Source of the DNA: an uncultured bacterium
Lineage (GTDB): Bacteria > Patescibacteriota > Gracilibacteria > Absconditabacterales > Absconditicoccaceae
Assembly: GCA_903918675.1 (NCBI GenBank)
Contig: CAIXFE010000093.1
Location: 1 to 59,330 of the forward strand
DNA length: 59,330 nt
Direction: 5' to 3'
Part shown: piece after piece, positions 4,296-59,330 of the stretch
Numbering within the stretch: position 1 is the stretch's first letter
Layout: every line of letters begins with the position of its first letter
Position numbers and translations under genes: made by a program
Notes under the pieces: model-generated
Seen by the model: the letters and a program-made list of their open reading frames with translations, nothing else
Told to the model about the DNA's origin: nothing
The model's database searches: none

Positions 4296-4877
4296 CTAGG
4301 CTTCAAGCTCTTTCTCTACAAAGTCCCGATTCACAATATTCCACCGATTCGTCACGTATTCTACCCTACGATTCTGATACTTCAGGTAATAGGCATGCTC
4401 CCATACATCTACAGTCAATAAAGGTTTTTTATCTAGAGTAAGCGGAGATCAAGCGTTACTCGTATTGATAATCTCTAATGTCCCATCAGGGTTTTTCACT
4501 AGCCAAGTCCGCCCAGATCAGAAGTTGCCGACAGCACTAGCCGTCATTACTTCTTTAAATTTTTCAAAACTTCATCGGTTAGCATTTATCGCTTCTAACA
4601 ATGATCAGGTAGGTTGATTATTCTCTTGTGGCGATTGCAGACAATTTCGATAGAACGTGTGATTCCAAATTTGTGATGCATTATTAAAGATGGGCCCATC
4701 AGCGGTCTTGATAATTTCTTCCAATTCTCGATCCTTAAATCCGGTATCAGCGATCAGCTCATTCAGTTTATTCACATAGCCTTGATGATGTTTACTGTAA
4801 TGAAGCTCGACTGTCTGGGCGTCAATGATGGGTTCTAGCGCATTGTAATCATAGGGGAGAGAGGGGAGAGTGAACAT
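4296..4877 (-). CDS. Fe/Mn superoxide dismutase
   Basis: [29 protein letters not shown] ... [15 protein letters not shown]. Pieces joined across TGA at 4605..4607. Confidence 0.9.
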
Positions 4878-5334
4878 AATAAGGGATTAGGAATTAAAAA
4901 TTAGGCATTGTATTTTTTTAAAATCTAAGGTCCAAGTTCTAAGCGCTAAGCTCTCTGAGTATCAAGCTTCAAGTTTCCAGCCAATAGCAATTGTACCGGT
5001 CGCCGAAGATTTTTCAATAGAAAATACGCTCTTGCAAAACGACATTTTTTCATTATTTATAGAAGTATCTTTATCTATCAAGCAATTTATGCTCAGAGAA
5101 AGCTTCAACGCAACGTGTTGTACAAACGGTAGAACTACTGGAGCTTTTCTCGATCGCATAAAAAGATAGAACATACTATTTTGCAGCTGCGCCTTCTGGG
5201 AAACTCCAGAGGTTTTTTTTAATTCGACGAAAGAAAATTTATGAATCTATTGCAGAAAATATTATATCGAGATGATTCGTGTCGAAACAAAATTTCTATA
5301 CGTAAAAGAATCTCTAAATAATTCAAATTTTACT

Positions 5335-5470
5335 ATATTCTGTCTCCCTTTCATAAAGGGAGATACCCGAAGGGGAGAGGGATTTTTTCTCGAAAACACT
5401 CTATCATCTCTAGTATCTTAAATCCACCTGTCTTTCAGACTTCCCCCTTTGCAAAGGGGGACAACATGGG
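5335..5470. repeat. hairpin-pair intergenic element (copy 2)
   Basis: TCTCCCTTTCATAAAGGGAGA hairpin, then ACCCGAAGGGGAGAGGGATTTTTT, ATCCACCT and a CCCCCTTTGCAAAGGGGG hairpin. Confidence 0.6.
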
Positions 5471-5524
5471 AGGCAATGAATATTTTAGAGGCCCCTAAAC
5501 TTTTTACTTATTAATCTTTTTCTC

Positions 5525-6430
5525 ATGAAACTAAATATTGAATGACTCTTACAAACCGTACCCATGATCCCTATCAAGGGAATCAGAGACAATACCGTCC
5601 ATGCGCTGATGGAGAAATATAATATTACTGGATCCGTGAAAGTGAAACCCGTCTATCGAATCCTCAAAGATGCTCACGAAAAATGATTATTAGATTGAAA
5701 TAAAATTGCCCTAGAAGCTTCCAGTGGGAATACTGCTATCGCATTAGCCTATCTCTGAAATCTTTTTGCTCTTCAGGTCCAGATCATCCTTCCTCGCACC
5801 ACTTCGCCTTGCAAAAAAAAATTGATCCAATCCTATGGCGCTGAGATCATAGAGATCGATGGGTCTACAGATATAGGGATTAAACTGAGAGATCGCATGC
5901 ACGCAGAGAATCCAGGTAAATATTTTCTTCCCGATCAATTCAGTAACTACGCTAACTTCCGAGCGCATTACCATCTCACAGGCCCGTATATCTTACAGAA
6001 ATTAGGGAAAATAGATTTCTTCATCGCAGGATTATGAACCTCATGAACTCTGCTCGGCGCTGGGAAATATCTCAAAGAACATCTGCCAGATATCAAGATT
6101 ATTTGAATTAATCCACTGGAGAGGATCGAAGGATTGAGAAACTTCAAAGCTACAGATATTGTGATTCCATTTTTTGAAGAACATAAATGACTGATCGATG
6201 AAATCATTGATGTGACCTTCGATCCCTGTGTCATCTCTGGAGTCCAAGAGTATCTCAAAGAAGGCTATTTCGTCGGTATCTCATCCGGTGCCATCTTGAG
6301 CGGAGCCAAAAAGTATCTCCATGGCAAATCTGGACTCAAGTGAGTAATTGTGGCTCCGGATGGTGGCGATTATTATCTCGATACCTTAGTGAAATATCTA
6401 GATGCAGAAGATTTCGTGGCTTGCAAGTAG
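5525..6430 (+). CDS. cysK: cysteine synthase family PLP-dependent enzyme
   Basis: NITGSVKVKP (PLP lysine region), EASSGNTAIALA, GLGTSGTLLG with both underlying glycines of G-x-G encoded by TGA. 301 aa, TAG stop. Confidence 0.75.
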
Positions 6431-6472
6431 GGAAATATTTCCATAGAAAAGAGAAATTAATTCCGTATGATA

Positions 6473-6570
6473 GAAGGGCTTGAAAGGTTTGAAAGGTAAG
6501 AAAGCCTTGAAAGGTTTCCGAAAAAAACTCCCTTTATCCCTTTGCGCCTTTATTCCCTTTCCTTCCCCTC
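6473..6570. repeat. word-array palindromic element (GAAAGG / CCCTTT)
   Basis: Left arm CTTGAAAGGTTTGAAAGGTAAGAAAGCCTTGAAAGG, right arm CCCTTTATCCCTTTGCGCCTTTATTCCCTTTCC. Confidence 0.7.
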
Positions 6571-6577
6571 CGTCCAT

Positions 6578-8461
6578 ATGCAAGACATCATACTTCAGCT
6601 ATTCCATACGCCAACAAGCAAATTAGATCTTGATCTCCTTACTCAGCTCAAGAGAAGTTTTTCTAGAACTCATAAATTACCTGATCTTCCTTCAAACATC
6701 CAACTATTACAAGCTTACTACACCTTACTCAAAGCCAAAAAAATCAAAAAAACTCCTCAGATAGAACAGCTACTTAAGAAAAGAGCGATCAGATCTAGTT
6801 CGTGAATCGTAGCCATCCAGGTGCTTACCAAGCCCTTCCCCTGCCCAGGTCAGTGTATTTTCTGTCCCAACGATCCGACTATGCCCAAGAGTTATATCAA
6901 GTCAGAACCGGGTGCAATGAGGGCATTGCTCAATCATTTCGATCCGATCAAACAAGTATACAATAGATTGCTTTCACTGACATTGACCGGTCACGAAACC
7001 GATAAGATCGAGATGATCGTCTTGTGAGGGACATTCGACGTTTACACGAAAGCCTACAAAACGAAGTTTGTGAAAGAGTTATATGATGCCTGCAATACCT
7101 TCGATGAATATTTCGATAATATCACCGTCTCTACCACGACGAAATATTCTCACGCCATCACGGATAAGAGCAAGAAGATAAAATACTCGGCGAACATTAC
7201 TGAGGCACTCAAAAGAAATGAGAGCACAGCACATAGGATCATTTGACTCACTATCGAGACCAGACCTGAATATGTGACAGATGAGAACTGCAAATTTCGA
7301 CGTGAGTTGGGGGTAACAAGGATCGAGATGGGGTTGCAGTCTCTGGATGAAGAAGTCTTAAAGCTGAATAAGAGAGGGCATACGGTCCAGCAAGCACGCA
7401 TGGCCTGTGATAAACTCAGGAGGTATGGCTTCAAGATCTGTCTGCATATCATGCCAGGATTGTATGGCTCGAGTTATGCAAAAGATTTGAAGAGTTTCGA
7501 AGATCTTTATTCTGATCCATTTTTCAAACCCGATGAAATAAAATTTTATCCGACATCAGTCATTCCAAACACCCAACTCTGCAAACTCTACCAAGAAGGC
7601 AAGTACAAACCTCTGGAAACATCAGAGATAAAAAAACTTATTACTCAGACCTTTCTTCACGTTATCCCTCCCTACACCAGGATCAAGCGTCTCATCCGCG
7701 ATATCCCAGAAAACGAAATCGTTGCATGAAGCAAAGTAACGAATCTTTCGCAATTGATGCACGAAGAAATGCAATCAAAAATTGAAAATTGAAAATTGAA
7801 AATTGAAAATTTAACCGGAAGACTTTATGATAAATATAAACTTTTCAAAACAGTGAAAGAATTTCTAAGTGTCATTGCGAGTGAAGCAAGGCAATCCAGA
7901 AAGTGAAATAATGATGCAACATATATCATTGGTAAGAAGCCCGATCTAAAATCATTGAGAAACTTCGTATCATTAGATACAAGGAGTAGAGAAATTAGAA
8001 ATAAAATTAGAAATTGAAAATTGAAAATTGAAAATTGATCTCCGAATCTTGTGATGAGGAGATATCAGAGCAGCGCAGGGGAGGAGTACTTTATTTCATT
8101 CGAAGATGAGTTGGGATACTTGTACGGATTTGCAAGATTACTATTGCCCAAAGATGGAAAGAATCTAAGCTCTAAGTTCCAAGTGCTAAGCTCTAAAACG
8201 GCGATCATTAGAGAATTGCACGTTTATTGAAACGTTGAAACCCTCAAACAATGAAACAATGCGACACTGAAACACCGAAACAATAAGACTCAACATACTT
8301 GATTCTGAAAACAACTCATGCAGCTCGCCGAACAAATTGCAAAGGGAAACAATTACAAAAAACTTTCCGTAATCTCCGGCATTGGTGTCAGAGCATATTA
8401 CAGAAAGCTTTGATATAGACTCGAGTGAAGCTATATGGTGAAGAAAATTACTTCGTCTTAG
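6578..8461 (+). CDS. Elp3-like radical SAM / GNAT tRNA-modifying acetyltransferase
   Basis: CPGQCIFCP radical-SAM cluster motif, LTIETRPEY, MGLQSLDEEVL. C-terminal GNAT region [41 protein letters not shown]. All pieces lie in one frame with TGA=Gly. Confidence 0.8.
7778..8038. repeat. intragenic word-array element inside elp3
   Basis: (GAAAATT)4 at 7778..7812, hairpin GTCATTGCGAGTGAAGCAAGGCAATCC at 7871..7897, (GAAATTR)6 at 7990..8038. Translated in frame. Confidence 0.7.
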
Positions 8462-9116
8462 GTTCTACACATTTATCACGAGCAACTTGTAATTTCTCTT
8501 TATATATCTTCACGAAGGAGGAAAAATTTACACGATCTTTAGAAGATATCTTAATCGTTTGAGTCTTAGAATTGCTAAGCTGAAAGACCAATTTATCTTG
8601 AGTAAGAAGCTGATCACAGTAGTCTATTGCCTTTTGAATAACGCTCTTCAATGCAGTAAAACTTTTTGCCTTAGATATGCCTTCCCAAATTCCTAGAAAG
8701 TGTTCGCTTGAAGCTGAGTTTTTTTTCTCGTTATGAAATATTCTTCAGGAAGAAAAATTTGCGAAAATTATACCTACCTCTTGCTTAAAATTTCTCAAAG
8801 AAGCATCATATTGTATCTTCGCTCTAGCTAAAGCAGTATCCGGTTTGGTAGTATCAGGAGGATTCCCAGTAAGGTGAGATTGATCAGGAGAGAGGTTCTC
8901 AATAAGAGACTCTTTAGTAAACGTATTTCCAGAAAAATGGATAGGATTTCAGGCAAAACTGACAGCATTAATATCAGCGCCGCTTGATTGAGGAGCGCCT
9001 ATTTCCACTCAGTGAAGATTATTGAGTAATTCCTTATCTGTGGCCAGAGGAGATGCTACTGTAGCACCCGCAACTACTAAAGATAAACCAGCCAGTAAAG
9101 ATTGAGACTTATTCAT
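8448..9116 (-). CDS. secreted hypothetical protein
   Basis: Signal-peptide-like MNKSQSLLAGLSLVVAGATVASPLA. Continuous 222-aa ORF with TGA=Gly. Its 3' end overlaps the elp3 stop by 14 nt (convergent). Confidence 0.5.
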
Positions 9117-9251
9117 GATGATATCATAACAAGTAAAAAATCTAACTAGTATATACATATTAGCAAAAAAAAGTCAACACAAAAAAACACCCGTCTCCAG
9201 GTGCTTTATATTCTCGTTTAGTCGTTTTAACGTTTAGTCGTTTGAACGTTC

Positions 9252-11156
9252 TTAAATATCAATGTCCTTAACACTCTTCGCATGCGTCAGGATGAAATGC
9301 TTTCTAGATTGTACATCTTCTCCCATCAAAATTCTGAATAATCTATCTGCTTCTTCGGCATCTTCTACATTGATCTGTTTCAATTTTCTATGTTCTGGAT
9401 CCATGGTTGTGCTCCACAATTGCTCAGCGTTCATTTCTCCAAGACCTTTATATCTCTGGACTTCCGTCTTATCTTTATCGAATCCATACATCTCAGGAGT
9501 ATGTGTCTCATCGTAGATATATTCTTCTTTTTTGCCTTGAGAAAATTTATAGATAGGAGGACAAGCTGCATAGACATGCCCATGCTCCAGTAATGGTCTC
9601 ATAAATCTAAAGAAAAATGTCAGGAGAAGTGTCCTGATATGTGCTCCATCCACATCCGCATCGGTCATGATGATGATTTTTTCATATCTCAATAATGCAA
9701 GATCAAAATTATCTTTCACTCATGTTCATATTGCAGTAATCAATGCTTTCACTTCATTATTTGCCATGATCTTCTGGATGACGGCTTGTTCTGTATTCAA
9801 AATTTTACCTCTCAAGGGGAGGATAGCTTGGAAATTACTATTACGACCTTGCTTCGCACTACCTCACGCACTGTCTCACTCTACGATGTACATCTCTGTA
9901 CCTTCCATCTTTTTCTGCGCACAGTCCGCAAGCTTACCTGGCAAGACTCCTCCAGCCAAAATATTTTTCCTCAATACAGTCTCTTTAGCAAACTTCGCCG
10001 CCAATCTTGCTCTCGCAGCCAATTCAACTTTCTCGAAAATTCTATCAAATTCACCTTCATTCTGAGCAAAATATTCCTTCAGATAATCATAGACAATGGT
10101 CTCCACTTCGCCTCTCACATAACTATTCCCTAGTCTTCCTTTCGTCTGTCCCTCAAATTGTGGCTCAGGTATCTTTACAGTCACGATAGAGTAGAGTCCA
10201 TCAGTCACATCAGAATATTGGAATTCTCATATTTTCTTATTGATCTTATCTTTTTCTTTCGCAACTTCGTTGATAATATTCAGAAGAGCAGATCTGAATC
10301 CAAGTACGTGTGAGCCTCCATCTGTGGTAGGAATATTATTCACGAACGAAAGCATGTGATCGTTGGGAGTATTTACAAATTCGAATGCAATCTCAGCCAA
10401 ACAGTCTTTCCCTTCTTTATTGATATAATGGATAGAGGAGAGCGGTTGTTGTTCTCCGACAAGATTTTTCAACCATGTCTTGATTCCTCATTCGAAGAAA
10501 AACCTCTGTTTGTATCAAGTCTTCTTATTATGAAAATTGAACGTGACCCCAGGAGTCAGATATGCACTCTGTTTCATCCTCGCTACTTCGATAGGTTGAG
10601 AAAATTCTACGGTCTCAAACACCAAAGGATCTGGTTTAAATTTCACGCTCGTCCCCACTTTATTGCTTTCTCCGATCTCTTGGATCGATCACTGAGGGAT
10701 TCCTCTCTCAAATCTTTGAAAATATTTCTTCCCATTTTTATATACAGTGACTTCCAACCATTCGGACAAAGCATTCACGACAGAAGCTCCTACTCCATGA
10801 AGTCCTCCAGATATTTTGTAGACATCCTTATCAAATTTTCCTCCTGCATGCAAGACCGTAAAGACAGTCTCTAAAGCAGATTTCCCAGTCTTCTCATGAA
10901 GGTCTACGGGGATACCTCTTCCATTATCATGGATAGAGACAGATCCATCTTCATTAATGGTCGTAGTAATGGTTGTACAATATCCAGCTAATGCCTCATC
11001 GACAGCATTATCTACGATCTCTTGGATCAAATGGTGTAATCCTTTGGCATCAGTGGATCAGATATACATCCCAGGTCTTTGCCTTACAGGTTCCAATCAT
11101 TCCAATACCTTGATATGCGAAGCATCATACTCCTTTGCGTTTGTAACGGGGGTCAT
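9252..11156 (-). CDS. gyrB: DNA gyrase subunit B
   Basis: Four same-frame pieces. [74 protein letters not shown]. Confidence 0.95.
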
Positions 11157-11309
11157 AAATAGTGTATAATAATATAAAATTTTCAAATGATCAAATTGCA
11201 CCAAATTATTCCCAATCATTTTTTAAATTCTTAAATTCCCTTGTTCTGTAAAGAATAAATTTTTAAATTCATTCGAACATTAGGAATAATTTATAAATTT
11301 GTATATTAA

Positions 11310-12587
11310 CTAATCATTCACATCGTAATCATCATCGAACCTACTCAAATATTCTTTCTCTTCATCCTCATTATCATAATCTTCATCGCTCTTTTTCTTT
11401 TGTCCTTTCACCTTTTTCCTCTTCCCTTCGGTAGCCTCCAGTTTAGCGATATCATCCTCAATTCCAAGTATTTTTTGCAATCCCGTATGTTCTTTCAATT
11501 TCTGAATGACCTTCTGTTCGATCTGCCTCACTCTTTCTCTCGTGACATCAAATTCCTCTCCTACTTGTTCCAATGTATATTTGGGTCAATCAATTCCATA
11601 TCTCATTTTGACGATCTTCGCTTCTCTATCATCCAGCATTGCTAAGATCATATCTAGATTTTGCCTCAGGGCATTCTTCTCTGCAAACTGATCCGGCCTC
11701 AACGTATTGTTATCTTCGATCAAATCGGCTAAGGTGTCTCTTCATTCATCACCCACTTCTCTATCTAACGATACATTTCCGAAGATCACTTCTTCCAATT
11801 TCTTGATCTTCTTGATAGGAAACCCCAGTTTCTGTCAGATTTCTTTGGAGGTTGGCTCTCTTCATAATTTCTGGAACAGAATCTGATAGGTTTTATTGTA
11901 AGAATTAATTTCATCGATCAAATGGACGGGAATCCTTACGTGTTTGGTCATATCAGCTATGGCTTTGGTGATGCTTTGTTTGATCCACCAAGTCGCATAG
12001 GTAGAGAATTTAAATTCTTTATCTGGATCAAATTTTTCTATCGCTTTGATCAGCCCAATATTCCCTTCTTGGATGAGATCCGAAAAGCTCAATCTAGAGC
12101 CAAAAAACCTCTTGGCGATACTGATCACCAATCTAAGATTGGATTCTATCAATGTCCTCTTAGCTGCCTCATCTCACTTTTTGACACGTCTTGCGATATC
12201 TCTTTCATCTTCAGAATTTAGCAATGGGATCTTAGATATCTCATTGAAATAGAGCTTGATAAAGTCCTTATGCTGAGGATCGGCGCGACGAGTATCAGTT
12301 TCGTATAATTGCATTTTACCAAGTTTCGTCTCTTTCTTGGCTTCTTCAGCTTCTTTTTCTAATATTTCTTCGATAGTAATGATCTTGATCCCGAGTTTCT
12401 CAGCTAGATCATAAAATTTCTCGATAATCTTGATATTGAGATCCATATCATCGACATCAGCAATCACATCTTCTTCATTGATGATACCCGTGAGGAATCC
12501 TTGCTTCAAGAGATCCTGCAGTGGTTTACTGAGTTCAGAGATGTCATCCTGGAAACTTTCCCATAATTGTTTTTTTACTTTTAGCAT
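11310..12587 (-). CDS. rpoD: primary sigma factor RpoD
   Basis: Three same-frame pieces. [67 protein letters not shown]. Carries an extra charged C-terminal tail. Confidence 0.95.
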
Positions 12588-12643
12588 ACCAAAGAAGGGG
12601 ATTATGGAGTAAAAGTACTAAAGAACAGGCAATCTTCAAATAT

Positions 12644-12671
12644 TTGACAAATACGATAAAATATATATAAT
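12644..12671 (+). promoter_or_regulatory. near-consensus sigma70 promoter
   Basis: TTGACA-16 nt-TATAAT on the plus strand. The next recognisable plus-strand gene (ruvA) starts about 400 nt downstream. Confidence 0.5.
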
Positions 12672-12937
12672 ATATATGGTGTAGTGACCATGTGCTTAAA
12701 TAGAGAAAGGGAACATTATCTTGCAAAAGATTTTGTTCTTTTCTTTTTGCAGGAGAAGGTAGTTATTACCTATCTTCTTGTACCAGCATATGAATTTAAG
12801 AACAACAAAAAAATTTGTCACAAAAGAATTTGTACGGATTTAATCACCAATATCAACAGAAAAATTGGTCTACATATTCACGGATATTCTTGCTAAGATT
12901 GTATGGAAACAGAGTGTGGATTGATTATATTCTTAGT

Positions 12938-13049
12938 GTTAAAAGGTTAAAGAGTTGAAAGGTTAAAGGGTTATTAATGAGATAAAAACACGTTAACCCG
13001 TTAACACACTAACTCGGTAACTCGCTATAACTCGCCAACCCGTTAACCA
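12938..13049. repeat. word-array palindromic element (GGTTAAA / GTTAACC)
   Basis: Left arm GTTAAAAGGTTAAAGAGTTGAAAGGTTAAAGGGTTA, right arm CGTTAACCCGTTAACACACTAACTCGGTAACTCGC...CCCGTTAACC. Period is about 7 nt. Confidence 0.75.
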
Positions 13050-13072
13050 TTTAATTCTTAAATTCCCTTCCT

Positions 13073-13624
13073 ATGTTTCACTTATTCACTGGCAAACGCA
13101 TTTCCTACGGACCCAAGACCTACCTTCAAAACGCATACTTCGGTATCCAAGCAAACTATATGTGAATCCAGTCAGAAGGTACTTTTTTTCTCTATCCTTA
13201 TCTAGATGATAATAAGAAGACAATAATTTATTATGCCTTCGATACGGCAGATCAGCAGGCGCTTTTCGAGAGCTTACTCAAAGTCAGTGGGATCGGGCCA
13301 AAGACCGCTTTCCAGATCGTACAGTTGCCTAGAGAAAATCTCCAGACGGCACTCAAAACCGTAGACGTAAAGTTTTTCCAGTCCATCCCAGGCATCTGAC
13401 CTAAGTCTGCAAAGAAAATTTTGCTGGAACTCAAATGAACGGTCGGTGTCGAAGATTTCGAAAAGATTACCGTCGACGAAAAATTATTCAAAGACATCGT
13501 CAAATCACTCAAAAATTTCGGCTATGATACCTACAAAGTCAAAGAAGTTCTACAAAAATATGATGGCAAAATCACTAAAGAAAATATGCCAGAAGTGATC
13601 AAGTGGATTATTAAGAATATATAA
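13073..13624 (+). CDS. ruvA: Holliday junction DNA helicase subunit RuvA
   Basis: Two HhH motifs, LLKVSGIGPKTAFQIV and QSIPGI[TGA]PKSAKKILLELK. 183 aa. Confidence 0.85.
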
Positions 13625-13629
13625 GACAT

Positions 13630-14499
13630 CTAATTAAGTGTCTCATGAGAGGTATAATCGGGGCTAGAAAATTGGGTAATTGGTTCTTTTCCTATATGAC
13701 TTTGTATCATATCTAGAACCTTTTTCGTTTCTTTTCAAGGGAATAAATTTCGACTCTTTTTTGCATAGGAGGAAGCTTTAATATAATCTTTTTTTTCAGC
13801 AAAAATTTCAGCGAACAATAGATATATATCTGCATCCCTACCCAAAGTGGTAGACGATGGGGTATCAAGTTTTAAACTTTCTTGAAGATAATCTATCGCT
13901 TGATCATAAGCTCATGAGCGCCTCAAAATAAATGCTTGTATATAGAGAATACTTTTCACTTGTTGAAACGATCATTGAGGATAAACCCCATCAAATAAAG
14001 CCAAGAATTTATTAGAATATTCAGTTACCTCATGATAGTAAGAAGATACATTAGTGTCAAAAGTAATTATCGCTTTCAAAAGCCAGAGGCCCTTTTGATC
14101 TTCCACGGACAATTGAGCTATATCACTCTCTGAAAATTTATTAGAAAAATCAAGAGCTTCAGTATACTTATGTAAGCAGTAAAATGCTAAAGATCATTTG
14201 ACAACAATGCGACGTTTTTGCTCTAAATCAATGCTATTCCCAGCGAGCAAAGGCACTAAACTCTTGGCAATGAACATCGCCTTGGAATAATCTTTAGACT
14301 CATATATTTTCTCAAGATAATCTATAAGGTGGGCATCATGCCTATGCGCTTCAAGTCAAGGATTCACTTCAGAACGAAGGGTGTCAGCAAGAGTTTTTTG
14401 GACGAATAAAGATTCTTTCCCTGCAAAAAGATCCAAGCCCTCATGCCTTGTCTTTTGTACATCTGCAAAATCTGGTTTAAAGAATTTTTCTTCTTGCAT
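13630..14499 (-). CDS. hypothetical protein, TPR-like helical repeats
   Basis: Continuous 289-aa ORF with TGA=Gly, checked triplet by triplet. No recognisable catalytic motif. Confidence 0.5.
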
Positions 14500-41855: not shown

Positions 41856-43259
<1,404 letters not shown>

Positions 43260-47935: not shown

Positions 47936-47970
47936 AATGTATAAGATAATAAAGAATAAAAAAATAATCA

Positions 47971-49125: not shown

Positions 49126-50985
49126 ATGAATGCAAGCAACAAGATTAGTGAAGCGAAGAAGAAAAGGGAAGCCCGCAACCCGATCAACAATTCACCCATA
49201 AATAATAAAGCTCAAGCTCCAGGAACCATTATGGTTCTTATGAGTATTTTAACAAATAATGATAAAGGACACATGTTTGCAGAGAAACTTAATAAGGGAG
49301 AGACGCTTTCTATGGAAGAATTTAACGAAGTCTTGAAACATGGTGCAGAGTGAACAAGGATCCAAGCATTGGATATCGTAGATGAGGAGACATTAAAACC
49401 TGAAGATAATTTCTTCTTCGGGATATCAAATCAGATGTACACAAAACATAAAGATCGCTTTAAGATAGGCCGTCACTCCTATGTGGCTCCGCTGAGTCTC
49501 TATAGATCTTTCTACAACAGAAAGATGGGGATTCCCAAAGAGCCTTATTATTATCCCAATGTCGAAGTCTCCATCGGAGATGGTTCTAATGTACAAGAGC
49601 TGAGGGCATTCCAATGTTTCAACGATCAGAAAAAAGTGAAGATCACAATAGGAAACGATAGCTCCTGTGCTCATAATGTGTGATTTGTATGCGATAATAC
49701 CAATGATGAGAAGGTCGCCACCTTCACTATCGGATCCAATGTATTTGTATGAATCAATTCTACACTCAAAGAAAATTCTATCATAGAATCTGGCAAAAAC
49801 GGGAATTATACGGTAATAGGATTTGGCTGCCAACTCAATGCACGATGTAAAATCTGAAGTGGCTGTATCATCTGAGATGGAGCAATAATAGATGAAGGGA
49901 TAGAGATACCCGAAAACATGGTAATACTCCCTGGGACTCACGTTACTCCCACTACACTCAAAGAGAGAATAAAGATGGAAGAAGTTGGATCGACACAAGA
50001 AGAAGACCAAGAAATCTTTAATGGACTTATTGATTTAGGGACAGGAGAAACCGAAATAGAAAACAGAAAAAAGCTGAAAGAGCTTGGGCCTTCTCTCGCA
50101 TTCTTGCATAGGTTCAATGATCATGTATTGGAAGACAATCAAGCATTTCCTAGTATGTATCGTTTGATTAAAAGATATCACACAGATCATCATTATATTA
50201 TGGAAAAACGTGAAGAAAAATTTGTAAAGATAGATTCTGCACAATTAGATAAAAGAATGCCCGAAAAAGATAGCTCAAATACGAAAGAATCGTATGCCGA
50301 AAAACTAGAGAAAGGCAAAGCAGAATGACAGTTTGTAAATGTAGATTTACCGCAGAAGAAAGATGAATTTCTACATCACTATTATCTAGAATCACTTAAG
50401 AAGAAAAATGATCCCGCGTATGAGATCATCCCTTATCCATGAGAGTTTACCAATGTAGAAATTGATGACACGGTAGAATTGGATAAAGGGACAATAATGT
50501 ACAATATCGGAGAGACTAAGATAAAATGAAATAGTAAAATCAGTGGACTCGTAGTCAATAGAAGTGGAGATGAATGAGGTAGCCTAGAAATATGGGACTC
50601 AGAGATAAGACACGGAGCCGTATTCCACGCAGCTGGAAATAAGAAAATAACTAATAGTGTAGTAGATAGATGGTCTATCGTCCACGGAGCAACGACTCTC
50701 GATCACATGAACCTCCAAGAAAATATCGTCTTAAATAATGTCACTGCCGAAAATTGAACCATTGGCTCACGATCTACACTTGTCTGAGTAGATATGGTAG
50801 ACACAAACATAGCAAAATCATGTCGTATGTTATGACATAAAAAAGGAATCAAAATCGCATGAAGCTGCATATCAGAATGGTGCGTACTTAGAGATGGAAC
50901 GACAGTCACAAACACAACAAGTATCCCCACCAATTATAGAGGCAAACTAGATGAAGTATGGGACGAGAATAAAAAAGCAAACTAA
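49126..50985 (+). CDS. hypothetical protein with two beta-helix (hexapeptide-repeat-like) regions
   Basis: Three same-frame track ORFs plus a tail joined with TGA=Gly, all lines checked. IGSGCIIGDGAIIDEGIEIPENMVILPG resembles LbH transferases. 619 aa. Confidence 0.5.
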
Positions 50986-51013
50986 AATATCTTTCTCCCA
51001 AAATAAAAAAAAT

Positions 51014-51038
51014 CGGCCCTTAAAAAAGGGCCTTTTTT
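51014..51038 (+). terminator. rho-independent terminator
   Basis: GGCCCTT-AAAA-AAGGGCC followed by TTTTTTT, 29 nt after the TAA at 50983..50985. Confidence 0.8.
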
Positions 51039-51083
51039 TAGGGATTGACTTTCTTGGGTATTTGGGTATAAGAAATAAAAAAA

Positions 51084-51242
51084 ATGGCAAAGATGAGAAA
51101 GAAAAGATCTGGATATGATGTGTTCATATTCTGGATCAAGAGAGAATCAAGAGGCATGAGCCAAGCAGTTAAGTTGGCGAGCATGGGAATGTGTATCCCA
51201 CTTTTATGGGGGGTTTATGTTCTTATAACAATGCTACTATAG
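51084..51242 (+). CDS. possible small membrane protein (52 aa)
   Basis: MAKMRKKRSGYDVFIFWIKRESRGMSQAVKLASMGMCIPLLWGVYVLITMLL. Flanked by terminator-like hairpins. Speculative. Confidence 0.2.
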   Translation: MAKMRKKRSGYDVFIFWIKRESRGMSQAVKLASMGMCIPLLWGVYVLITMLL

Positions 51243-51329
51243 TCTCTATTTCTAGAGCGAATAAAAAGGGGTCTGCATTTCTGCCGACGCTTTTTTTATT
51301 TGAGAAAAGATTATAAGACATCCAGATAC

Positions 51330-51807
51330 TTACTTTCAAATGAGCCTCTGTATTTCGGCTTGATATGCTTTCAAACGAGTCGCTTCGACATTGGAGCAAA
51401 GATTTTCTTTTACACTTTGTCTAAGATCATCATTCACGAGACGAGGATCGATATTGTTTGCAGCGACATCCTTATCTATCATATCTTTATCGGTGACACA
51501 ATTATCATTATAAGGAGGGAATCTAGGGCCCACCAGTGGAATATATCAACTCTCATTAGGGATAATTCTTGTGATCGAGTATATCCTTATGCCCCCAGCT
51601 TCTGCGATTGTTCACTCATAACAGATTCCTTTCGCTCCGGAGTAAAATACACTACGCTGCAATATCTTTGCTCATGATGCAACTACTCATCGTTGTCCCA
51701 TGGTTTTGAAACCGTCGCATTGTTGCTGAGAAACAAATGGCCCTGCACAACCTGCAATAACCAGTAAAGCAAACATTCAAAGAAATAAGGTGAGAATCTT
51801 TTTCATA
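51330..51807 (-). pseudogene. lipoprotein gene with apparent +1 frameshift
   Basis: The lipobox signal peptide MKKILTLFLGMFALLVIAGC (frame of 51807) runs into a TAG after 51 codons. The 130-aa remainder continues in the adjacent frame. The shift maps to the A/T run at about 51718..51722. Confidence 0.4.
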
Positions 51808-51932
51808 ACAATGAAAATGATAATATAAATGTGGAATTATTTAAAAATATTTTGATATACATCACTCAATCTCTCAACCTTCCCACTTTCTTTATCCTGT
51901 AAGGACAACCTTCCCACTTTCCAACCTTCCAA

Positions 51933-53282
51933 CTATTCTTCTATTCTCCTGCATTCTAGATAAAATCTCTTCTCTGCGGCTTCGCCCATAGAAAAGGTTT
52001 TCCTAGGTAAAGCACCGTCGATGACGACGGTCTTGAAGAAGTCGCCTTTATCCATGATCGGTAATAAGAATCCCATATTGTGATCTCTACTTCCCAGAGT
52101 TTCCGTTGTTTCTTCCCCATGCACATAATCTATCTTCACTTCAGGATGAGCTTTCAAGTACTGATCTAGAAATGCCTGCAGGTTGCCGACTTCGAGATTG
52201 AGCTTGGGATGGACGATGTCTAGCAGACCAAACGTAGACGAAGCGACAAAACGGATATAGTGATGCTCCGCACTCGAAGGTTTCAGACTTTTTTTCAATT
52301 CTTCAGAAGAAGGATACGTAGTGACGACAAGATCAGATCCCTGCGCCTGGAAATAGCTCTTCATCTCTGCCAAAAGGCCTGCCTGGTCCGCAGCGAAAAG
52401 TACTCTATGGATCGGCTCGAAAGTCAGCCCCGTATCATGGACATTGACCAGCTCTACCAGCGCAAATCTGGCTGGAAAGTTTTTTTTCTGATCCTCAGTC
52501 AAAGTTTTTTTCTTCTCTTCTCGGATGGCCTTGGCAGTCGCGAGCGAGTGATTCCCATCTCCCATAGCGAAGAGCAAGACGCCCTTCTGATCGTCTACAG
52601 CATATTTCTCCTGAAACACTTTCTTCTCAGCTAATTTCTCTAAGGCCTTGATGACTTGATTTATTTTTTGCTCATCATCGATCTGATAGCCGGTAGCATG
52701 GCCACCTTCCATCATGAGATCGAAGTCATATAATTTCTGGCATTGCGCGCGATCAGCGAAAAGCGGCTCGATGACTGTTCTTTCAGGATCATCGATCAGT
52801 ACCATAATATGGGGCGTCTCTATCGGCGCTCCATTTCTGATCTGGATCCTCGGAGGCAATCTATCTACGATAGTTCATTCCGTGGCTCTGATCAATGTTT
52901 GCGATCCGACACTATAATCATATTTTTCTAAGTCCAGCGCCACGACCAATCATTTTCTAGAGTCCGTATGCGCGGTCTTTCTATCAAGCAAGACGAAGCA
53001 AGATCATTTATTTTCTAAGATACCATCTAGGTAATCACGCATATAGGTATGGATACGTTTGATCCTGTGGGCTTTATCAGCCTCTTCGAGATACACTTCG
53101 GGATAGATGATATTCACAGTCGAAGGATCATCTGCCACGATATCAGCCACTTCTTCCCGATATTCAGGCTCAGAGGTATATTGATCACAAGCGACGACAG
53201 CTCGTTTCTCAAGATCGACGGAGTCATTAGGAAGAAGAATTTCAGGTACCGCAATTCAGAGATGGGGGAAAATAGTTTGCAT
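51933..53282 (-). CDS. DUF1015 family protein
   Basis: VVACDQYTSEPEY, AMGDGNHSLATAKA, EPIHRV, RFYLECR. 449 aa, upper part verified. Confidence 0.8.
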
Positions 53283-53353
53283 GGGAGTATGATTAGGGAC
53301 TAAAAGTTCTTTGCACTTATAGAGATGTAAGTGATTTTTGCAATTGAAAAAAG

Positions 53354-54058
53354 ATGTTGGGATTGAAAAGGTGGAGAAAAATATTTATAATTGGGGGTAG
53401 AAGATCTTTTTTACTTGGTAATCGTGAAAATATGGATTTTGACGTAGAGAAAGAGACGAAAGAGACGGAGCTTATTCAGACTGATTTAAGTGTAACCGTT
53501 GTTCATGAAGATGAAAATGCTGATGTATTCAGTGAAGATTGGGAAATTTCTATGCACCCAAATTTTCTTAATCTAAAAGACTCCAAAAGACATAACATTA
53601 CTAGTCATTCGAGATGGTTTAAAAATAAGATTAAGCTTAATCACTTAAAGGAGGGGATAGAGGCCATAAACAAACGAAAGATCTGTATTGTAGATTTCGG
53701 AATGAATATCGGGACAGAGATAAATGGCATCAGACCAGTAATTGTCTACAAAGCTTCGACATATAAATATTGAGAAGACATGATAGTAATCCCTATTACA
53801 TCTTTTGAAGATGAGACAGGAGAGGAAAAATCTAAAGACGCCTTAGATGTAGTGTTGGAGGCGGACATAGAGAATGGAATAGATCACAAGTCATTGGTCA
53901 AAATAAGACAAATGAGGTGTGTTTCCAAAAAAAGATTAAGGAGAGATAAAGATTCAGGAATAATCAAAATCCTTGGAAATATTGTGAACGAAGATATCAA
54001 GAGAGAAATAAATGGAAGTATTAAGAAAATATTTGGATTAGATGGGAACGACAATTAA
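53354..54058 (+). CDS. MazF/PemK-fold toxin domain protein with ~100-aa N-terminal extension
   Basis: C-terminal half reads ICIVDFGMNIGTEINGIRPVIVYK..., IVIPITS, SLVKIRQMRCVSKKRL (PemK pattern). The N-terminal part is acidic and unmatched. An alternative start exists at 53432. Confidence 0.65.
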
Positions 54059-54125
54059 AAAAAAGCTCTTCAATCCTTGCGGATAAGAGCCAGCTACCCC
54101 GAAGGGCTACATCTAAGTGAATTAA

Positions 54126-54409
54126 GTATACTCAAAATCATACAAAAAAGCAAGAGAAAATGATTTAAAAGAAAAACCCTGTATGCTATTTACGAGGAAC
54201 CTACGGAGCCCCACATACAAGGATTTACTTTCTTGATGATGAGTATACTCAAAAAATCTAAAAAATCAAGCAAAAGTCCAGCCAAATTTCTAGAATTTTA
54301 AAAAAAGGCCGCACCAGCCAAGCATTGCTACTTGACCCATACAGACCCATCGTGATAACATAATCATGTTACTCAAAATCATACAAAAAAGCAAGATGAA
54401 ATGATTTTT
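54126..54409 (+). repeat. three dispersed ~40-nt direct repeats (117- and 124-nt spacing)
   Basis: GTATACTCAAAATCATACAAAAAAGCAAGAGAAAATGATTT (54126), a degenerate copy at 54243, and TGTTACTCAAAATCATACAAAAAAGCAAGATGAAATGATTT (54367). Copies 1 and 3 fold as AAATCAT/ATGATTT hairpins. Confidence 0.7.
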
Positions 54410-54595
54410 TTAGATTTAAAAATTTGAAAATTAATTCGGAATAATTGGGGGTAATTCGAACATTTGTAAATTTGAAGTCCCTCAATCTCTCAACTTCTCA
54501 ATCCCTCAACTTCTCAACAGCCGAAGGCTCCTACTTCCGATTGAAAAAGCCCCAAAGAAGGGTATAGAGAGAGGGATTTATTTTTCTAGTTATCC

Positions 54596-56917
54596 ATGTC
54601 CCATTCAGAATCAGATACCAGGGCGAAGTTCATTGACCCGCAACTCAAAGAAAACTGACGAACTGAAGATTATATCATCAGAGAGTATTATTTTACTGAC
54701 GGAAAAAAACTTGTTTGAGGGAAAAGATGACCAAAATGTTTCGCAGACTATTTATTAAAATATAATGGAGTAAAATTAGCTATAATTGAAGCAAAAAGTG
54801 ATGATAAACAACCAACAGAATGATTGGAGCAAGTAAAAGATTATGGAAATAAATTACAAATAAGATTTGTGTATACAACGAATGGTCAAAAGATTTATGA
54901 ATTTGATCTTCATGCAGGTAAGGGTGATTTCATAGATAAATATCCAAGTCCAGAAGAGCTCTATCATCGTATGATTGGACCAGAAGAGACAATGAAACAA
55001 GAAATTCTTAGTCAACAATATTATCTTTCTGGTGGTATGAAGCCAAGATATTATCAAGAGATTGCTATCCAAAAAGCATTGGAAGCTATCGCAGAAGGGA
55101 AAGATAGAATCTTACTCACCCTGGCGACAGGTACTGGAAAGACCTTTATAGCGTTCCAGATCGTATATAAATTATTTATGGCTAGACGAAGTAAAGATTG
55201 ATCTCAGAGAAGACCAAGAATACTTTTTCTCGCTGATAGAAATATCCTTATTGATCAAGCAATTAATACCTTCAATCCACTAGAAAAAGATCTGGTAAAA
55301 GTAACGGGTGTAGAAGTTAAAAAGAGAAACTGAAAAGTGCCAACTAATGCAAATGTGTTCTTTGCTATCTATCAAGCGATCGTTGGTGATAAGCCGGAAG
55401 GTGAAGAAGATTATCAAGACGAAGATTTGAGAAATTATTACAAACAATATCCATCAGATTTTTTTGATTTAGTTATCATAGATGAATGTCATAGATGATG
55501 AACAAACGAAGCTGGTTCACGACACGATATTCTAAAACATTTTTCTCCTGCAGTACATCTGGGAATGACTGCTACACCAAAGAGAGAAGATAATATTGAT
55601 ACTTACAAATATTTTGGTAATCCCGTCTATCAATATTCACTCAAAGAGGGGATTAATGATGGATTTTTGTCTCCCTACAAGGTCAAAAGAATCTGGACAA
55701 GTATAGATGAATTGGTGCTTACCAATGATGATGTTATTATCAAAGGAGAAGCAGAAAAGACAGTATATGAATTGCCTGACTTTGATAAAAATATCGTTAT
55801 CCAAGAGAGAAATGATCTCATAGCACAAAGCATCTTATCTACCATGAGCCCTTTGGAAAAAACGATTGTCTTCTGTGTAGATCAAGATCATGCGCTGAGA
55901 ATGAGAGATAGCATCAATAAATATAAAACGATCAAAGACGCCGATTATTGCGTCAGAGTGACGAGTAATGAAGGCGAGATAGGAAGGACCTATCTAGAAA
56001 GATTTCAAGATAACGATAAGACGATTCCCACTATCCTCACATCATCACAAATGCTGACGACAGGAGTCGATGCAAAGAATGTAAGAAACATCGTTCTGCT
56101 AAGAGCGATAGGCTCAATGGTAGAATTTAAACAAATCATCGGAAGATGAACAAGACTTTTTGAAGGGAAAGATTTTTTTACCATTATAGATTTTACTGGT
56201 GCAACAAATAAATTTTATGATGAAGATCGAGATGGTGAGCCAGAAGGTATGATTGATGAACCAGAAACGCCACCTACAAAAAGCAAAAAAAAGTGAGATA
56301 AGCCAATAATTGATACTCCACCAAGAAAAGAAAGATTAGAGGTAAAGTTAGCTGACGATAGAGTACTTAGAATTATAAATATAGAAACGAGATATATCGA
56401 CGATCACGGTAAACCTGTATCAGCGACTGAATTTTTGCAAAAGCTTATTGGCCAACTGCCAGAACTCTACAAAGACGAAGAGCAACTTAGACAATTACGA
56501 GCCAATCCAGAGACAAGAGAAAAATTACTTGAGAAGCTTGTAAGTATGGGTATAGATGCAGAACAACTTGATTCACTCAAAAAAATGTTTGAAGCTGATG
56601 ATAGCGATATCTATGATATTTTAGCACATATATCATTTAATGCCGAGATCAAAAAAAGAGTAGAAAGAGTAGCATATGTCAAAGGAACAAGAGTAGTCTT
56701 TGATCATTACGAAAATATCAAAGCACAAGAATTTCTTGATTTTATACTAGATCAATATGCAGAGCACGGCATCTTTGAACTTCAAGGGAATAATCTTGGT
56801 AATCTCATTAGCTTATATAAGAAGGAAACTGTGCCGGAGATGGCCTTAGCTTTCGGTGGAGAAGAATTATTAAAGAAAGCGTATTACGAGTTACAGGAGG
56901 GATTGTTTAGAATATAA
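54596..56917 (+). CDS. hsdR: type I restriction endonuclease subunit R
   Basis: Four same-frame pieces. SF2 motifs TLATGTGKTF, IIDECHRG, LGMTATPK, LTTGVD, QIIGRGTRL. EcoEI-R-C-like tail. Confidence 0.9.
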
Positions 56918-56925
56918 AAAATAGT

Positions 56926-57576
56926 ATGCAAATAACAGATCTACAGCTAAAAGAACAATTTGATATACAAATGGAACTTATTAAATCTGCGATGGAATGA
57001 TTTGATAAATGAAATTTTCTAGAAGCAATAAATTTAGCAGTTAGACTAAGAGTTTTATTACACGATACAGACAACTCTACATCGTTATTACAACAAATAT
57101 GAGTAAAAGATAAATTATGATACTATGATAGTTGTTTACATCGCATCAAAAATGAAGGATCTAATTGAGTATATATATGATTGATGCAATTCGTTGTATG
57201 AAATGATAAGGTTTTTGCACTTCTAGATGATAGCCCAGATGTTCAAATCGTGAACTTTAATCAACGACGAAATAGGGATATATTTATAGATATAGATGGA
57301 ACATCACTATCTCGTAAAGATGTTGTACTAAATATAGCTAATAAAATATGAGCTCATGTGGATTTAGATTTTGATGCATCATATCAAAAAATAATAAAAG
57401 ATAATTCTTTGGGAATTATGCTGTCAAATGATGAAATCTCACATAGTCCAATAAAAAAATTAGAATATGTAGCAATCAGACAAATTACTCACGAGTTACT
57501 AAGAACTCTATTTGAGAAGTATAGATTTAGCTATATGTTTGAATGAAGTGGATTTTTTATGACTATAAATTTTTAA
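56926..57576 (+). CDS. hypothetical protein embedded in the type I R-M locus
   Basis: 216-aa ORF, frame checked line by line. Motif NIANKI[TGA]AHVD. Starts 9 nt after the hsdR stop. Confidence 0.55.
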
Positions 57577-57579
57577 AAC

Positions 57580-58134
57580 ATGTCTCGATTTACATCTCTC
57601 TCAGAAACATTACAATGAGTAATTATATGATGAGGAATATCCCTTCTAACTGCAATTCTTACAGCCTTAGTTTCTTATTATTTTAATTCTAGGCAACAGA
57701 AAAAGGAAAGAAAATATCTGGTAGAAAAAGAAAACTTTTTTAAGCTTCAAGAAAAAGTAGAAACAATATTTAAATGATTAGATGCTTATAGACTGCAGAT
57801 TGTTATATTATATAGAAATATGAAAGATAATGTTCACTTTGAAGAAGATTTTATGGAACATAAAATTAAAGAAAGATTTTGAAATACAAGAGAAGCGATG
57901 TCACAATATACATATATATACTTTAAAGAGCTTTATGACGATATTAGAAAGTTAATAGAGATACATGATGAGATTTTAACAAAATATTTTGATCGATTGA
58001 AAGAACAAAGAACAAGAACAGATGAAGAAAGTGAGTTTTTTGCTACAAAGATACAATTATTTCTAGACGAATATGGAGCTCTTTTAGATAGATTTTTAGA
58101 AAAACTTGAAGAAAAAAGAAATATTTTAAAATAG
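57580..58134 (+). CDS. hypothetical single-pass membrane / coiled-coil protein embedded in the type I R-M locus
   Basis: TM segment VIIGGGISLLTAILTALVSYYF, then a charged helical region. Starts 4 nt after the previous stop. Confidence 0.5.
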
Positions 58135-58146
58135 TAATAGAAAGAA

Positions 58147-59330
58147 ATGACTAACCGACCCACAAAAACTCTTTGAGAGATTATCCTGGTTATTAGAAAT
58201 TGAAAAAGTTGCAAACAAACCAAAGATAATATCTGAGATAAAATCACAAGGATAGAAACTATCTCAAATTGAACGATAAACGAAAAAAAAGTTTGATTTT
58301 TCGAATTATCAGAAGATGAAAAAGAAAAATTCTCTATAAAGAAATGAGATATCCTCTTTAGTCATATTAACAGCGTTGAACATATTGGCAAGGTTGCATT
58401 GGCAGAGAAAGATTATTCTGATCTATTCCATTGAATGAATCTACTCTTAATAAGAGCAGACAAAAAAATAATAGATCCGGAATTTCTATGTGTAGTTCTA
58501 AATAAATTTTTTGAATTCTGATACTGGAGAAACATATGCAAGAAAGCTATAAATCAAGCAAGCTTAAATCAACCAAATATTACAGAAATTCAGATCCCTC
58601 TCCCACCTCTCGCCACCCAAAAAGCCATCGTCGCCAAGCTAGACGAGACCTTCGCTCAGATAGATGAAGCGATAGCTACTACGCAAGCTAATATCGAGAG
58701 AACAAATGAACTGACGAAGTCGGTACTAGATAAGGTGTTTGAAGAAGGGGAGTGGGAGAGAGTGAAATTCTGAGAGATATGTAATTTTGTTAGATGACCA
58801 TTTGGCTGAAGTCTCAAAAAGGAAATATTTAAATCGTCTGGATATGCTGTTTATGAGCAGCAGCATGCTATATGAGATCAATTTAATGAAATTAGATATT
58901 TTATTGATGAAGAAAAGTTTAATGAGATGAAAAGATTTGAACTTAAAGAGTGAGACTTGATTATGAGTTGTTCGTGAACAATGTGAAAAATAGCAATCGT
59001 GCCAAACGGCATTAAAAAATGAATTATTAATCAGGCACTGTTAAAACTTACGCCATCTGCAAATATATATAACTACTTTCTGAAATTATGGATGCAAAGT
59101 AGTGATTTTCAAAAGAATTTACAGGAATATTCTCAAGGTGCCGCGATACAAAATGTAGCATCTGTATCCATTCTAAAAAATATCAAAGCCCCAGTTCCAT
59201 CACTGCTCGAACAAAAAGAAGTTTCTACTTATCTCGACCAAGTCTTCGCTCAATCTTCCCAGCTTAAGTCTCAGTATCAAGCTAAACTGGTTGAGCTTAA
59301 AGAACTGAAGGCGAGCGTTTTGCAAGGGGC
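58147..59330 (+). CDS. hsdS: type I restriction-modification specificity subunit S (3' end beyond window)
   Basis: Two target-recognition halves separated by the conserved IPLPPLATQKAIVAKLDETFAQIDEAI helix. Second conserved helix begins LLEQKEVSTYLDQVFAQ. Confidence 0.85.

Follow-up and report, generated by a model that had tools for sequence, protein, structure and literature searches.

CGA and CGG very probably encode tryptophan in a 59-kb genome fragment of candidate division SR1/Absconditabacterales

We analysed the genetic code of a 59,330-nucleotide stretch of DNA (contig CAIXFE010000093.1; the whole stretch is referred to as the window), in particular the meaning of its CGA and CGG codons, for which an earlier note on the same DNA had proposed a change from arginine to tryptophan on top of the code in which UGA stands for glycine (NCBI table 25). 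Genes of the window encode, among others, an Fe/Mn superoxide dismutase (SOD), LepA, MetAP, NusG, AtpB, AtpG, AtpD and the type I restriction proteins HsdR and HsdS. A greedy longest set of open reading frames (ORFs), called with TAA and TAG as the sole stops, comprises 63 ORFs and covers 87.6% of the window, which has a guanine plus cytosine (GC) content of 0.377. The 17,320 codons of this set include 73 CGA, 14 CGG, 76 TGG and 301 TGA, and the remaining arginine codons are dominated by AGA (357, against 126 AGG, 53 CGT and 34 CGC). TGG alone makes up 0.44% of the codons, which is low for tryptophan; together with CGA and CGG the share is 0.94%, and CGA plus CGG would then account for about half of the tryptophan codons (87 against 76 TGG, or 53% over all called ORFs). 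These totals are approximate because the set contains a few doubtful ORFs (12690-12896, 34731-35003, the Ser/Phe-rich and seemingly spurious 25420-26178 on the plus strand, and the N-terminal half of 27386-28366); all tallies of codon meaning given below are restricted to columns supported by homology. In the last of these ORFs (plus strand), homology to dUTPase begins only at about residue 176, so that its long N-terminal part is probably untranslated.

Stop-to-stop ORFs of at least 100 residues sum to 103 kb when TGA is read as sense, compared with 37.8 kb when it is a stop. Specifically, TGA stands opposite glycine at 71 of 112 aligned Escherichia coli columns and opposite tryptophan at none, and it exchanges with GGN codons in relatives; since it thus behaves like GGA (opposite glycine at 119 of 176 columns), the base code is table 25, and table 4, in which UGA is tryptophan, is ruled out. 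A search with the LepA of the window as query, keeping one genome per species, returned 80 loci, 13 of which are outgroups that use the standard code and whose LepA reading frame lacks TGA. The closest loci (L014, L001 and L021, at 86%, 81% and 80% identity) are named candidate division SR1/Absconditabacterales, and the LepA of the complete genome RAAC1_SR1_1 is 67% identical. On this one marker and the record names, the window is a fragment of an SR1/Absconditabacterales genome. Exact protein matches on short contigs place the same species in the samples JGI 3300009175, ENA ERZ27245846 and ENA ERZ18626558.

What CGA and CGG correspond to in standard-code organisms was read from alignments in which every CGA and CGG of the window proteins had been replaced by X, which keeps the alignments unbiased. 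When every window protein was aligned to 14 regions of E. coli K-12, the 24 alignable CGA/CGG codons fell opposite W nine times, F five times, Y, L and G twice each, and K, Q, S and E once each, and never opposite R; the 20 columns of CGA alone held W seven times, F four times and Y twice, and no R. TGG has the same profile: its 24 columns hold nine W, five F, three L, two Y and further residues, and 16 of 24 are aromatic, as they are for CGA/CGG. In contrast, AGA, AGG, CGT and CGC stand opposite R at 119 of 209 E. coli columns and opposite W at none, and the difference between these four codons and CGA/CGG is significant for R (Fisher test, p = 9e-9) as well as for W (p = 3e-10). Tryptophan amounts to 0.69% of the E. 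coli residues in the aligned columns, compared with 9 of 24 at CGA/CGG. Pooling all standard-code homologues makes 32 of the 87 sites testable: 17 show W, 8 show F or Y and 7 some other residue, but R is absent, so that plain table 25, with CGA and CGG as arginine, is rejected (Table 1).

Several proteins carry this result beyond the E. coli tally. Solved Fe-SOD structures place W at SOD sites 77, 123 and 184, F at 101 and 178 and K at 50, and the Vibrio vulnificus HsdR (3h1t) has W at HsdR sites 22, 198 and 309 and F at 545. In 58 homologues of the NT5C-like protein, W predominates at all five CGA/CGG sites (24, 56, 64, 115 and 197), while two control positions of the same alignment behave as expected: AGG-104 is R in 58/58 and TGG-142 is W in 57/58. 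The few R at its CGA/CGG columns include those of the two closest sequences, which are of SR1 type. Some of the homologues carry the NT5C 5'(3')-deoxyribonucleotidase domain, PF06941 or PF24694; the window protein itself has no Pfam match, and the search of the PDB with it gave none. For the rarer codon CGG (14 codons), W stands at SOD 123 and 184 and at NT5C-like 24 and 197, and 35 relatives have TGG at LepA 477.

Table 1. CGA and CGG codons of the window with an aligned homologue column or, for HsdS 4, an internal repeat, and what stands there. Gene coordinates are given at the first row of each gene; "cited" marks the nine sites named in the earlier note.
Protein (gene coordinates)	Residue	Codon and positions	Strand	Aligned residues or codons
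Methyltransferase (64-684)	156	CGG 217..219	-	TGG in the sole aligned SR1 relative
Ctp/Prc-type protease (2623-3888)	378	CGA 2755..2757	-	F in E. coli Prc; TGG in SR1 relative
Fe/Mn SOD (4296-4877)	184	CGG 4326..4328	-	W in Fe-SODs, LVNWEFV; TGG in SR1 relative
Fe/Mn SOD	178	CGG 4344..4346	-	F in Fe-SODs
Fe/Mn SOD	123, cited	CGG 4509..4511	-	W in E. coli and 4 other Fe-SODs, GSGWTWLV; TGG in SR1 relative
Fe/Mn SOD	101	CGA 4575..4577	-	F in Fe-SODs
Fe/Mn SOD	77	CGA 4647..4649	-	W in E. coli SodB and 4 other solved Fe-SODs, NHTFYWNCL
Fe/Mn SOD	50	CGA 4728..4730	-	K in Fe-SODs, variable column; TGG in SR1 relative
Cysteine synthase-like protein (5525-6430)	45	CGA 5657..5659	+	S in E. coli CysM, uninformative
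Cysteine synthase-like protein	146	CGA 5960..5962	+	Y in E. coli CysM
Elp3 (6578-8461)	241	CGA 7298..7300	+	SR1 relatives TGG 1, CGA 2
NT5C-like (HAD-type) protein (18222-18860)	197	CGG 18270..18272	-	W in 54/58 homologues
NT5C-like protein	115, cited	CGA 18516..18518	-	W in 53/58 homologues, R in 4 including the closest, SR1-type P0001 and P0002
NT5C-like protein	64	CGA 18669..18671	-	W in 41/58 homologues
NT5C-like protein	56	CGA 18693..18695	-	W in 53/58 homologues
NT5C-like protein	24	CGG 18789..18791	-	W in 39/58 homologues
LepA (19184-21262)	391	CGG 20354..20356	+	Variable: E in E. coli and outgroups; TTY, TCT, TGG in SR1 relatives
LepA	477	CGG 20612..20614	+	SR1 relatives TGG 35, CGA 28, CGG 2; Y in 3 outgroups
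DUF1294 protein (21376-21681)	31	CGA 21466..21468	+	SR1 relatives TGG 1, CGA 2
DUF1294 protein	43	CGA 21502..21504	+	SR1 relatives TGG 1, CGA 2
MutY/HhH-GPD glycosylase (22199-23008)	14	CGA 22238..22240	+	W in E. coli MutY
MutY-like glycosylase	24, cited	CGA 22268..22270	+	W in E. coli MutY, GRTLPWQ
MutY-like glycosylase	103	CGG 22505..22507	+	Sole exception: CGC, AAG in two aligned SR1 relatives; stretch unalignable to E. coli MutY
MutY-like glycosylase	136	CGA 22604..22606	+	L in E. coli MutY; TGG in 3 SR1 relatives
MutY-like glycosylase	182	CGA 22742..22744	+	F in E. coli MutY; SR1 relatives TGG 2, CGA 1
PLD-like protein (26234-27262)	196	CGA 26819..26821	+	SR1 relatives TGG 9, CGA 5
dUTPase ORF (27386-28366)	320	CGA 28343..28345	+	F in E. 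coli Dut GGFG; SR1 relatives TTT 8, TGG 1, CGA 1
MetAP (28470-29255)	227, cited	CGA 29148..29150	+	W in E. coli Map, DGWTVKTKD; SR1 relatives TGG 11, CGA 6
MetAP	240, cited	CGA 29187..29189	+	Y in E. coli Map, SAQYEHT; SR1 relatives TGG 12, CGA 4, CGG 1
Protein without assigned function (33179-33712)	64	CGA 33368..33370	+	TGG in the sole aligned SR1 relative
NusG (35002-35586)	93, cited	CGA 35278..35280	+	W in E. coli NusG, SWHLVR
HtrA-type protease (39784-40920)	141	CGA 40498..40500	-	G in E. coli DegP, 27% identity, uninformative
AtpD (41856-43259)	112	CGA 42924..42926	-	W in E. coli AtpD, EERWAIHR
AtpG (43331-44230)	128	CGA 43847..43849	-	G in E. coli AtpG, uninformative
AtpB (47971-48792)	122	CGA 48427..48429	-	L in E. 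coli AtpB, uninformative
HsdR (54596-56917)	22, cited	CGA 54659..54661	+	W in EcoKI and V. vulnificus HsdR 3h1t; TGG in L243
HsdR	198	CGA 55187..55189	+	W in V. vulnificus HsdR; TGG in L243, L244
HsdR	309	CGA 55520..55522	+	W in V. vulnificus HsdR, Q in EcoKI
HsdR	545	CGA 56228..56230	+	F in V. vulnificus HsdR; W in 4/5 aligned homologues
HsdR	635, cited	CGA 56498..56500	+	W in 3 distant homologues; R of closer ones is CGA in two recoded contigs
HsdS (58147-59328, runs off the window)	4, cited	CGA 58156..58158	+	Internal repeat of the second half, WERVKFGEI (TGG), only

For the remaining 46 of the 87 in-frame CGA/CGG codons (positions 1..59330), no informative homologue column was obtained; the one aligned CGA column of a phage DnaB-like ORF, Q in Bacillus DnaB, is likewise uninformative. 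The nine codons on which the earlier note had based its proposal are all CGA or CGG, in frame, and lie where it had placed them. The tryptophan that it expected at NusG 93, MetAP 227, SOD 123, MutY-like 24 and HsdR 22 is found in E. coli at all five, and the aromatic residue at MetAP 240 and the tryptophan at HsdR 635 are borne out by the columns in Table 1. Residue 115 of the protein that it had called HAD-like is indeed a tryptophan site, and the label is to be corrected, given the NT5C domain of the homologues. HsdS 4 is an in-frame CGA whose tryptophan assignment is the weakest of the nine: solved HsdS structures in the PDB search and other homologue alignments do not cover it, and the internal repeat is its one point of comparison. 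The earlier note had further stated that the conserved arginines it checked, in stretches of atp, gyrB and rpoD, use AGA, AGG, CGU and CGC, and that CGA and CGG are absent from those stretches. This holds: gyrB and rpoD are free of both codons, and the one CGA of atpD stands for the W of EERWAIHR. Its statement that UGG has been kept as a tryptophan codon is in line with the 76 occurrences of TGG and W at 9 of its 24 columns.

Codon exchange inside the SR1 lineage gives a view that is independent of any translation table. We tallied the codons that 67 TGA-recoded SR1 loci carry at positions aligned to the window. Opposite window CGA (139 cells) stand TGG 44 times, CGA/CGG 46 times, Phe or Tyr codons 17 times and AGA/AGG/CGT/CGC never, and opposite window CGG (143 cells) stand TGG 46 times, CGA/CGG 39 times and another arginine codon once, so that a swap with the other arginine codons is seen in 1 of 282 cells. 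In the reverse direction, 103 of 450 TGG cells show CGA/CGG and none another arginine codon, while among 3169 cells of AGA/AGG/CGT/CGC only one shows CGA/CGG and two show TGG. Because such cells are not independent of one another, we also counted per site: TGG occurs in some relative at 17 of 41 CGA/CGG sites and another arginine codon at 1 of 41, compared with TGG at one and CGA/CGG at one of 223 sites of the other arginine codons. To selection in the SR1 clade, CGA and CGG are synonyms of TGG and unrelated to the arginine codons.

This reassignment is already known as a computational prediction. By tallying Pfam columns, by BUSCO alignments and from the identity elements of tRNAs, Shulgina and Eddy (2021, eLife) predicted CGA and CGG as tryptophan, and they reported Trp-type tRNA(UCG) and tRNA(CCG) together with the absence of tRNA-Arg(ACG) and TadA (PMC8629427). 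Contrary to the earlier note, which gave the Codetta prediction as limited to one clade of Absconditabacterales, it spans the entire Absconditabacteria clade (PMC8629427). Since the window falls in that clade, it is a further instance and not a new code. From another genome it adds independent positional support, as the earlier note had expected, and support from codon exchange. The window shares with the published code the clade, the two codons and their meaning, UGA = Gly, low GC and AGA as the main arginine codon, and the Trp-type tRNA(CCG) has its match in SR1 relatives of the window; nothing essential differs, and each defining feature open to testing on the window is present in it, although its genome is outside the listed assemblies. 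The 53% share of CGA/CGG among tryptophan codons lies near the top of the published range (for example, 30 + 24 against 35 UGG per 10,000 codons in GCA_002791215.1; PMC8629427), a comparison that is not strict because the published shares were counted on Pfam-aligned columns only, and ours over all ORFs. Later papers take CGA/CGG = Trp as the code of the clade (PMC13092985; bioRxiv 10.64898/2026.05.03.722492). Table 25, the SR1 and Gracilibacteria code, shares UGA = Gly with the window but keeps CGA and CGG as arginine. In Anaerococcus and Onthovivens (Bacillota), as in SR1, a CGN-box arginine codon has become tryptophan, with a tRNA(CCG) that has G73 and no A20 in a low-GC genome; there, however, CGA stays arginine because tRNA-Arg(ICG) reads it, whereas in the window CGA has changed as well and outnumbers CGG. 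AGG to Met in Enterosoma and CGG to Gln in Peptacetobacter are likewise sense-to-sense changes of rare bacterial arginine codons, differing from the window in the codons and the new amino acids.

The decoding side was approached through tRNA genes in related DNA. In the window, no tRNA gene was found with ARAGORN or Rfam, which gave no match of any kind, and the SR1 DNA of the 80 LepA loci has no tRNA with anticodon UCG or CCG. A metagenome scan for a tRNA pattern requiring a YCG anticodon, U20 and G73 matched at least 120 loci, about 85 of which are low-GC, TGA-recoded contigs with tRNA(CCG) of a single family that shows A1:U72 besides G73 and U20. Several of these contigs can be shown to be SR1: L140, L116 and L151 encode proteins 92-93% identical to those of SR1 loci, and L151 is syntenic with the window, carrying homologues of seven window genes (52-68% identity) and its tRNA(CCG) directly upstream of the DUF1294 homologue. 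The L151-type tRNA(CCG) is 71% identical to an SR1 tRNA-Trp(CCA) and 73% to the tRNA-Trp of E. coli, compared with 53-61% for SR1 tRNA-Arg. Genuine SR1 tRNA-Arg(GCG) and tRNA-Arg(CCU) retain A20 and A73, and tRNA-Arg(GCG) with A20 is present in six SR1 loci.

Taken together, we consider it highly probable that in this genome UGA is glycine, CGA and CGG are tryptophan alongside UGG, and arginine is encoded by AGA, AGG, CGU and CGC only, as the tallies against E. coli, solved structures, 58 NT5C-like homologues and 67 SR1 loci agree in indicating. The change would have come about in the following way. Dedicated tRNAs with anticodons CCG and UCG would be charged by tryptophanyl-tRNA synthetase (TrpRS) instead of arginyl-tRNA synthetase, because they carry the tryptophan set of identity elements (G73, A1:U72, no A20) and not the arginine set. 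At least tRNA(CCG) would derive from a copy of tRNA-Trp(CCA) by A36G and would still be charged by TrpRS. The lineage reportedly has no inosine-type tRNA-Arg(ACG) and no TadA (PMC8629427), so that CGU and CGC would be read by tRNA-Arg(GCG) and CGA and CGG would have been free to change jointly. Codon capture would have been at work, low GC first making CGA and CGG rare and the two codons later rising again as tryptophan codons. The nearness and resemblance of the two genes in relatives suggest that tRNA(CCG) arose by tandem duplication of tRNA-Trp(CCA) together with A36G. A Trp-type tRNA(CCG) lies 62 nucleotides from the tRNA-Trp(CCA) that it resembles in L222 (964-1172) and about 400 nucleotides from one in L208 (6964-7509), and in L142 and L165 it likewise adjoins or is near tRNA-Trp(CCA); all four contigs are TGA-recoded and low in GC.

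Several points weigh against this reading. The window, being free of tRNA genes, gives no direct view of how this very genome decodes the two codons. U20 and G73 were preselected by the scan pattern, which leaves A1:U72 and the Trp-like body as the independent elements. A cellular SR1 tRNA(UCG), which would read the main codon CGA, was not found among the metagenome-scan matches listed; a second scan of viral DNA, for UCG with U72-G73, returned ordinary phage tRNA-Arg only, and the only tRNA(UCG) recovered from recoded DNA is phage-borne (L092, L104, L106 and L162). The occurrence of a tRNA(UCG) with Trp identity in the clade is taken from Shulgina and Eddy (PMC8629427). Seven of the 32 tested sites are uninformative, and CGG 22505-22507 (plus strand) stands alone among the CGA/CGG sites in facing an Arg or Lys codon in SR1 relatives; the MutY-like protein is poorly conserved there, and the site may reflect alignment noise or be a true Arg-like position. 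Moreover, sequence comparison reports how selection treats a codon and not which residue the ribosome adds; some low-level insertion of arginine would therefore be compatible with it. A 2026 preprint states that these arginine reassignments lack experimental verification (bioRxiv 10.64898/2026.05.24.727570), in line with the earlier note, which knew of no such confirmation.

A rival reading is ambiguous decoding, in which competing or mischarged tRNAs would render CGA and CGG partly as tryptophan and partly as arginine, the reassignment being incomplete. Proteomic data do not exist, the exceptional CGG site faces CGC and AAG, and Codetta gave CGG as Arg or '?' for a few SR1 assemblies, for example UBA5124. 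We nevertheless regard ambiguity as improbable, since the codons exchange with the other arginine codons in 0 of 139 cells (CGA), 1 of 143 (CGG) and 1 of 3169 (reverse direction), and since they occupy invariant tryptophan positions of SOD, AtpD, NusG, MetAP, MutY and HsdR at which arginine would be damaging. A change of CGG alone, with CGA still arginine, is the commoner form in bacteria (PMC8629427, PMC13092985), known from Anaerococcus, Onthovivens and possibly one Gracilibacteria clade, and the sole tRNA recovered from SR1 cells, among the matches listed, has the anticodon CCG; it is very unlikely here and refuted by the CGA columns, which show W, F and Y but no R in E. coli and further W in HsdR and the NT5C-like protein, and by the 44 exchanges of CGA with TGG as against none with arginine codons.

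It also has to be considered that table 25 might apply unchanged and the codons be edited in the mRNA from C to U, as CGG would then become UGG. Such editing was for a time a source of error in interpreting the CGG codons of plant mitochondria; we know of no codon-changing C-to-U editing of bacterial mRNA. Edited CGA, however, would be UGA and hence glycine, while its columns are W or aromatic and it swaps with TGG, not with GGN or TGA; this disposes of editing, to which we assign only an extremely small probability. Smaller still is the chance that CGA and CGG are ordinary arginine codons and the tryptophan matches an effect of hand-picking. The nine sites of the earlier note were indeed chosen by eye, but the unselected tally of all alignable sites, with R at 0 of 32 and the Fisher values given above, refutes such a chance reading.

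The reassignment is mistranslated in public databases, since SR1-type entries (P0001, P0002, P0059-P0063, L243 and L244) record R where their DNA has CGA or CGG at conserved tryptophan columns. Pipelines using table 25, 11 or 4 put arginine at about half of the tryptophan positions, as table 25 does in the window, often at invariant catalytic or core residues, which impairs homology searches, the prediction of structures and the matching of metaproteomic data across the SR1 clade. CGA/CGG to Trp is one of very few bacterial sense-to-sense reassignments and has never been verified experimentally; well-defined tryptic peptides in SOD, AtpD, MetAP and NusG, together with the known samples, make a direct test possible. 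It is conceivable, although we think it rather unlikely, that this SR1 lineage stands at a late stage, with CGA the equal of UGG as a tryptophan codon, and that its decoding system holds undescribed features. Its cellular tRNA(UCG) may be built differently from the tRNA(CCG) family, because none turned up among the listed matches to a pattern to which about 85 CCG genes conformed; the Elp3 homologue and the phage tRNA-Trp(UCG) described below may be further such features.

The phage-borne tRNA(UCG) is an identical 71-nucleotide sequence, AGGAACGTGGTGTAATGGTAGCACAGCACCCTTCGAAGGAGTTGGTCTGAGTTCAAATCTTAGCGTTCCTG, with A1:U72, G73 and U20, on four contigs, three of them IMG/VR 'viral' and one from a metagenome (L092 5871-5941; L104 267-337, minus strand; L106 574-644, minus strand; L162 3145-3215). 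These contigs have a GC content of 0.31-0.35, Gly-like TGA at about 4-5% of codons, and CGA about as frequent as TGG; protein similarity of their ORFs to the window or the SR1 loci was not found. They look like phage DNA of an SR1-type host with its own tRNA-Trp(UCG). Another tRNA(UCG) with A1:U72 and G73 and a body close to bacterial tRNA-Trp (GTAGTTCAATTGGCAGAGC...GGTCTTCGAAACC...TGTTGGG) lies at 10613-10685 of L094, a 79-kb phage contig with a GC content of 0.36, 18 tRNAs in the stretch examined and no obvious TGA recoding. Additionally, L176 (Ga0194038_1000001), a genome-sized single contig of 1.12 Mb, has a Trp-type tRNA(CCG) with A1:U72 and G73 at 496-567, in a 3-kb stretch that shows no sign of TGA recoding; CGG may have changed in a further lineage here, or the stretch is perhaps too short to judge.

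Two further features of the window deserve mention. The Elp3 homologue (plus strand) matches the NCBIfam model TIGR01211 with 468 bits against a cut-off of 350, has radical SAM and GNAT domains and is also found in several SR1 relatives. Elp3 starts the xm5U34 wobble modification, and we speculate that such an enzyme might confine tRNA(UCG) and tRNA-Gly(UCA) to codons ending in A or G, preventing misreading of neighbouring codons. The type I restriction-modification locus (54596-59328, plus strand) consists of hsdR, two small ORFs (56926-57576 and 57580-58134) with no Pfam match, and hsdS, which runs off the end of the window; hsdM is absent from the window, and a PemK/MazF-like toxin ORF (53354-54058) lies just upstream of hsdR.

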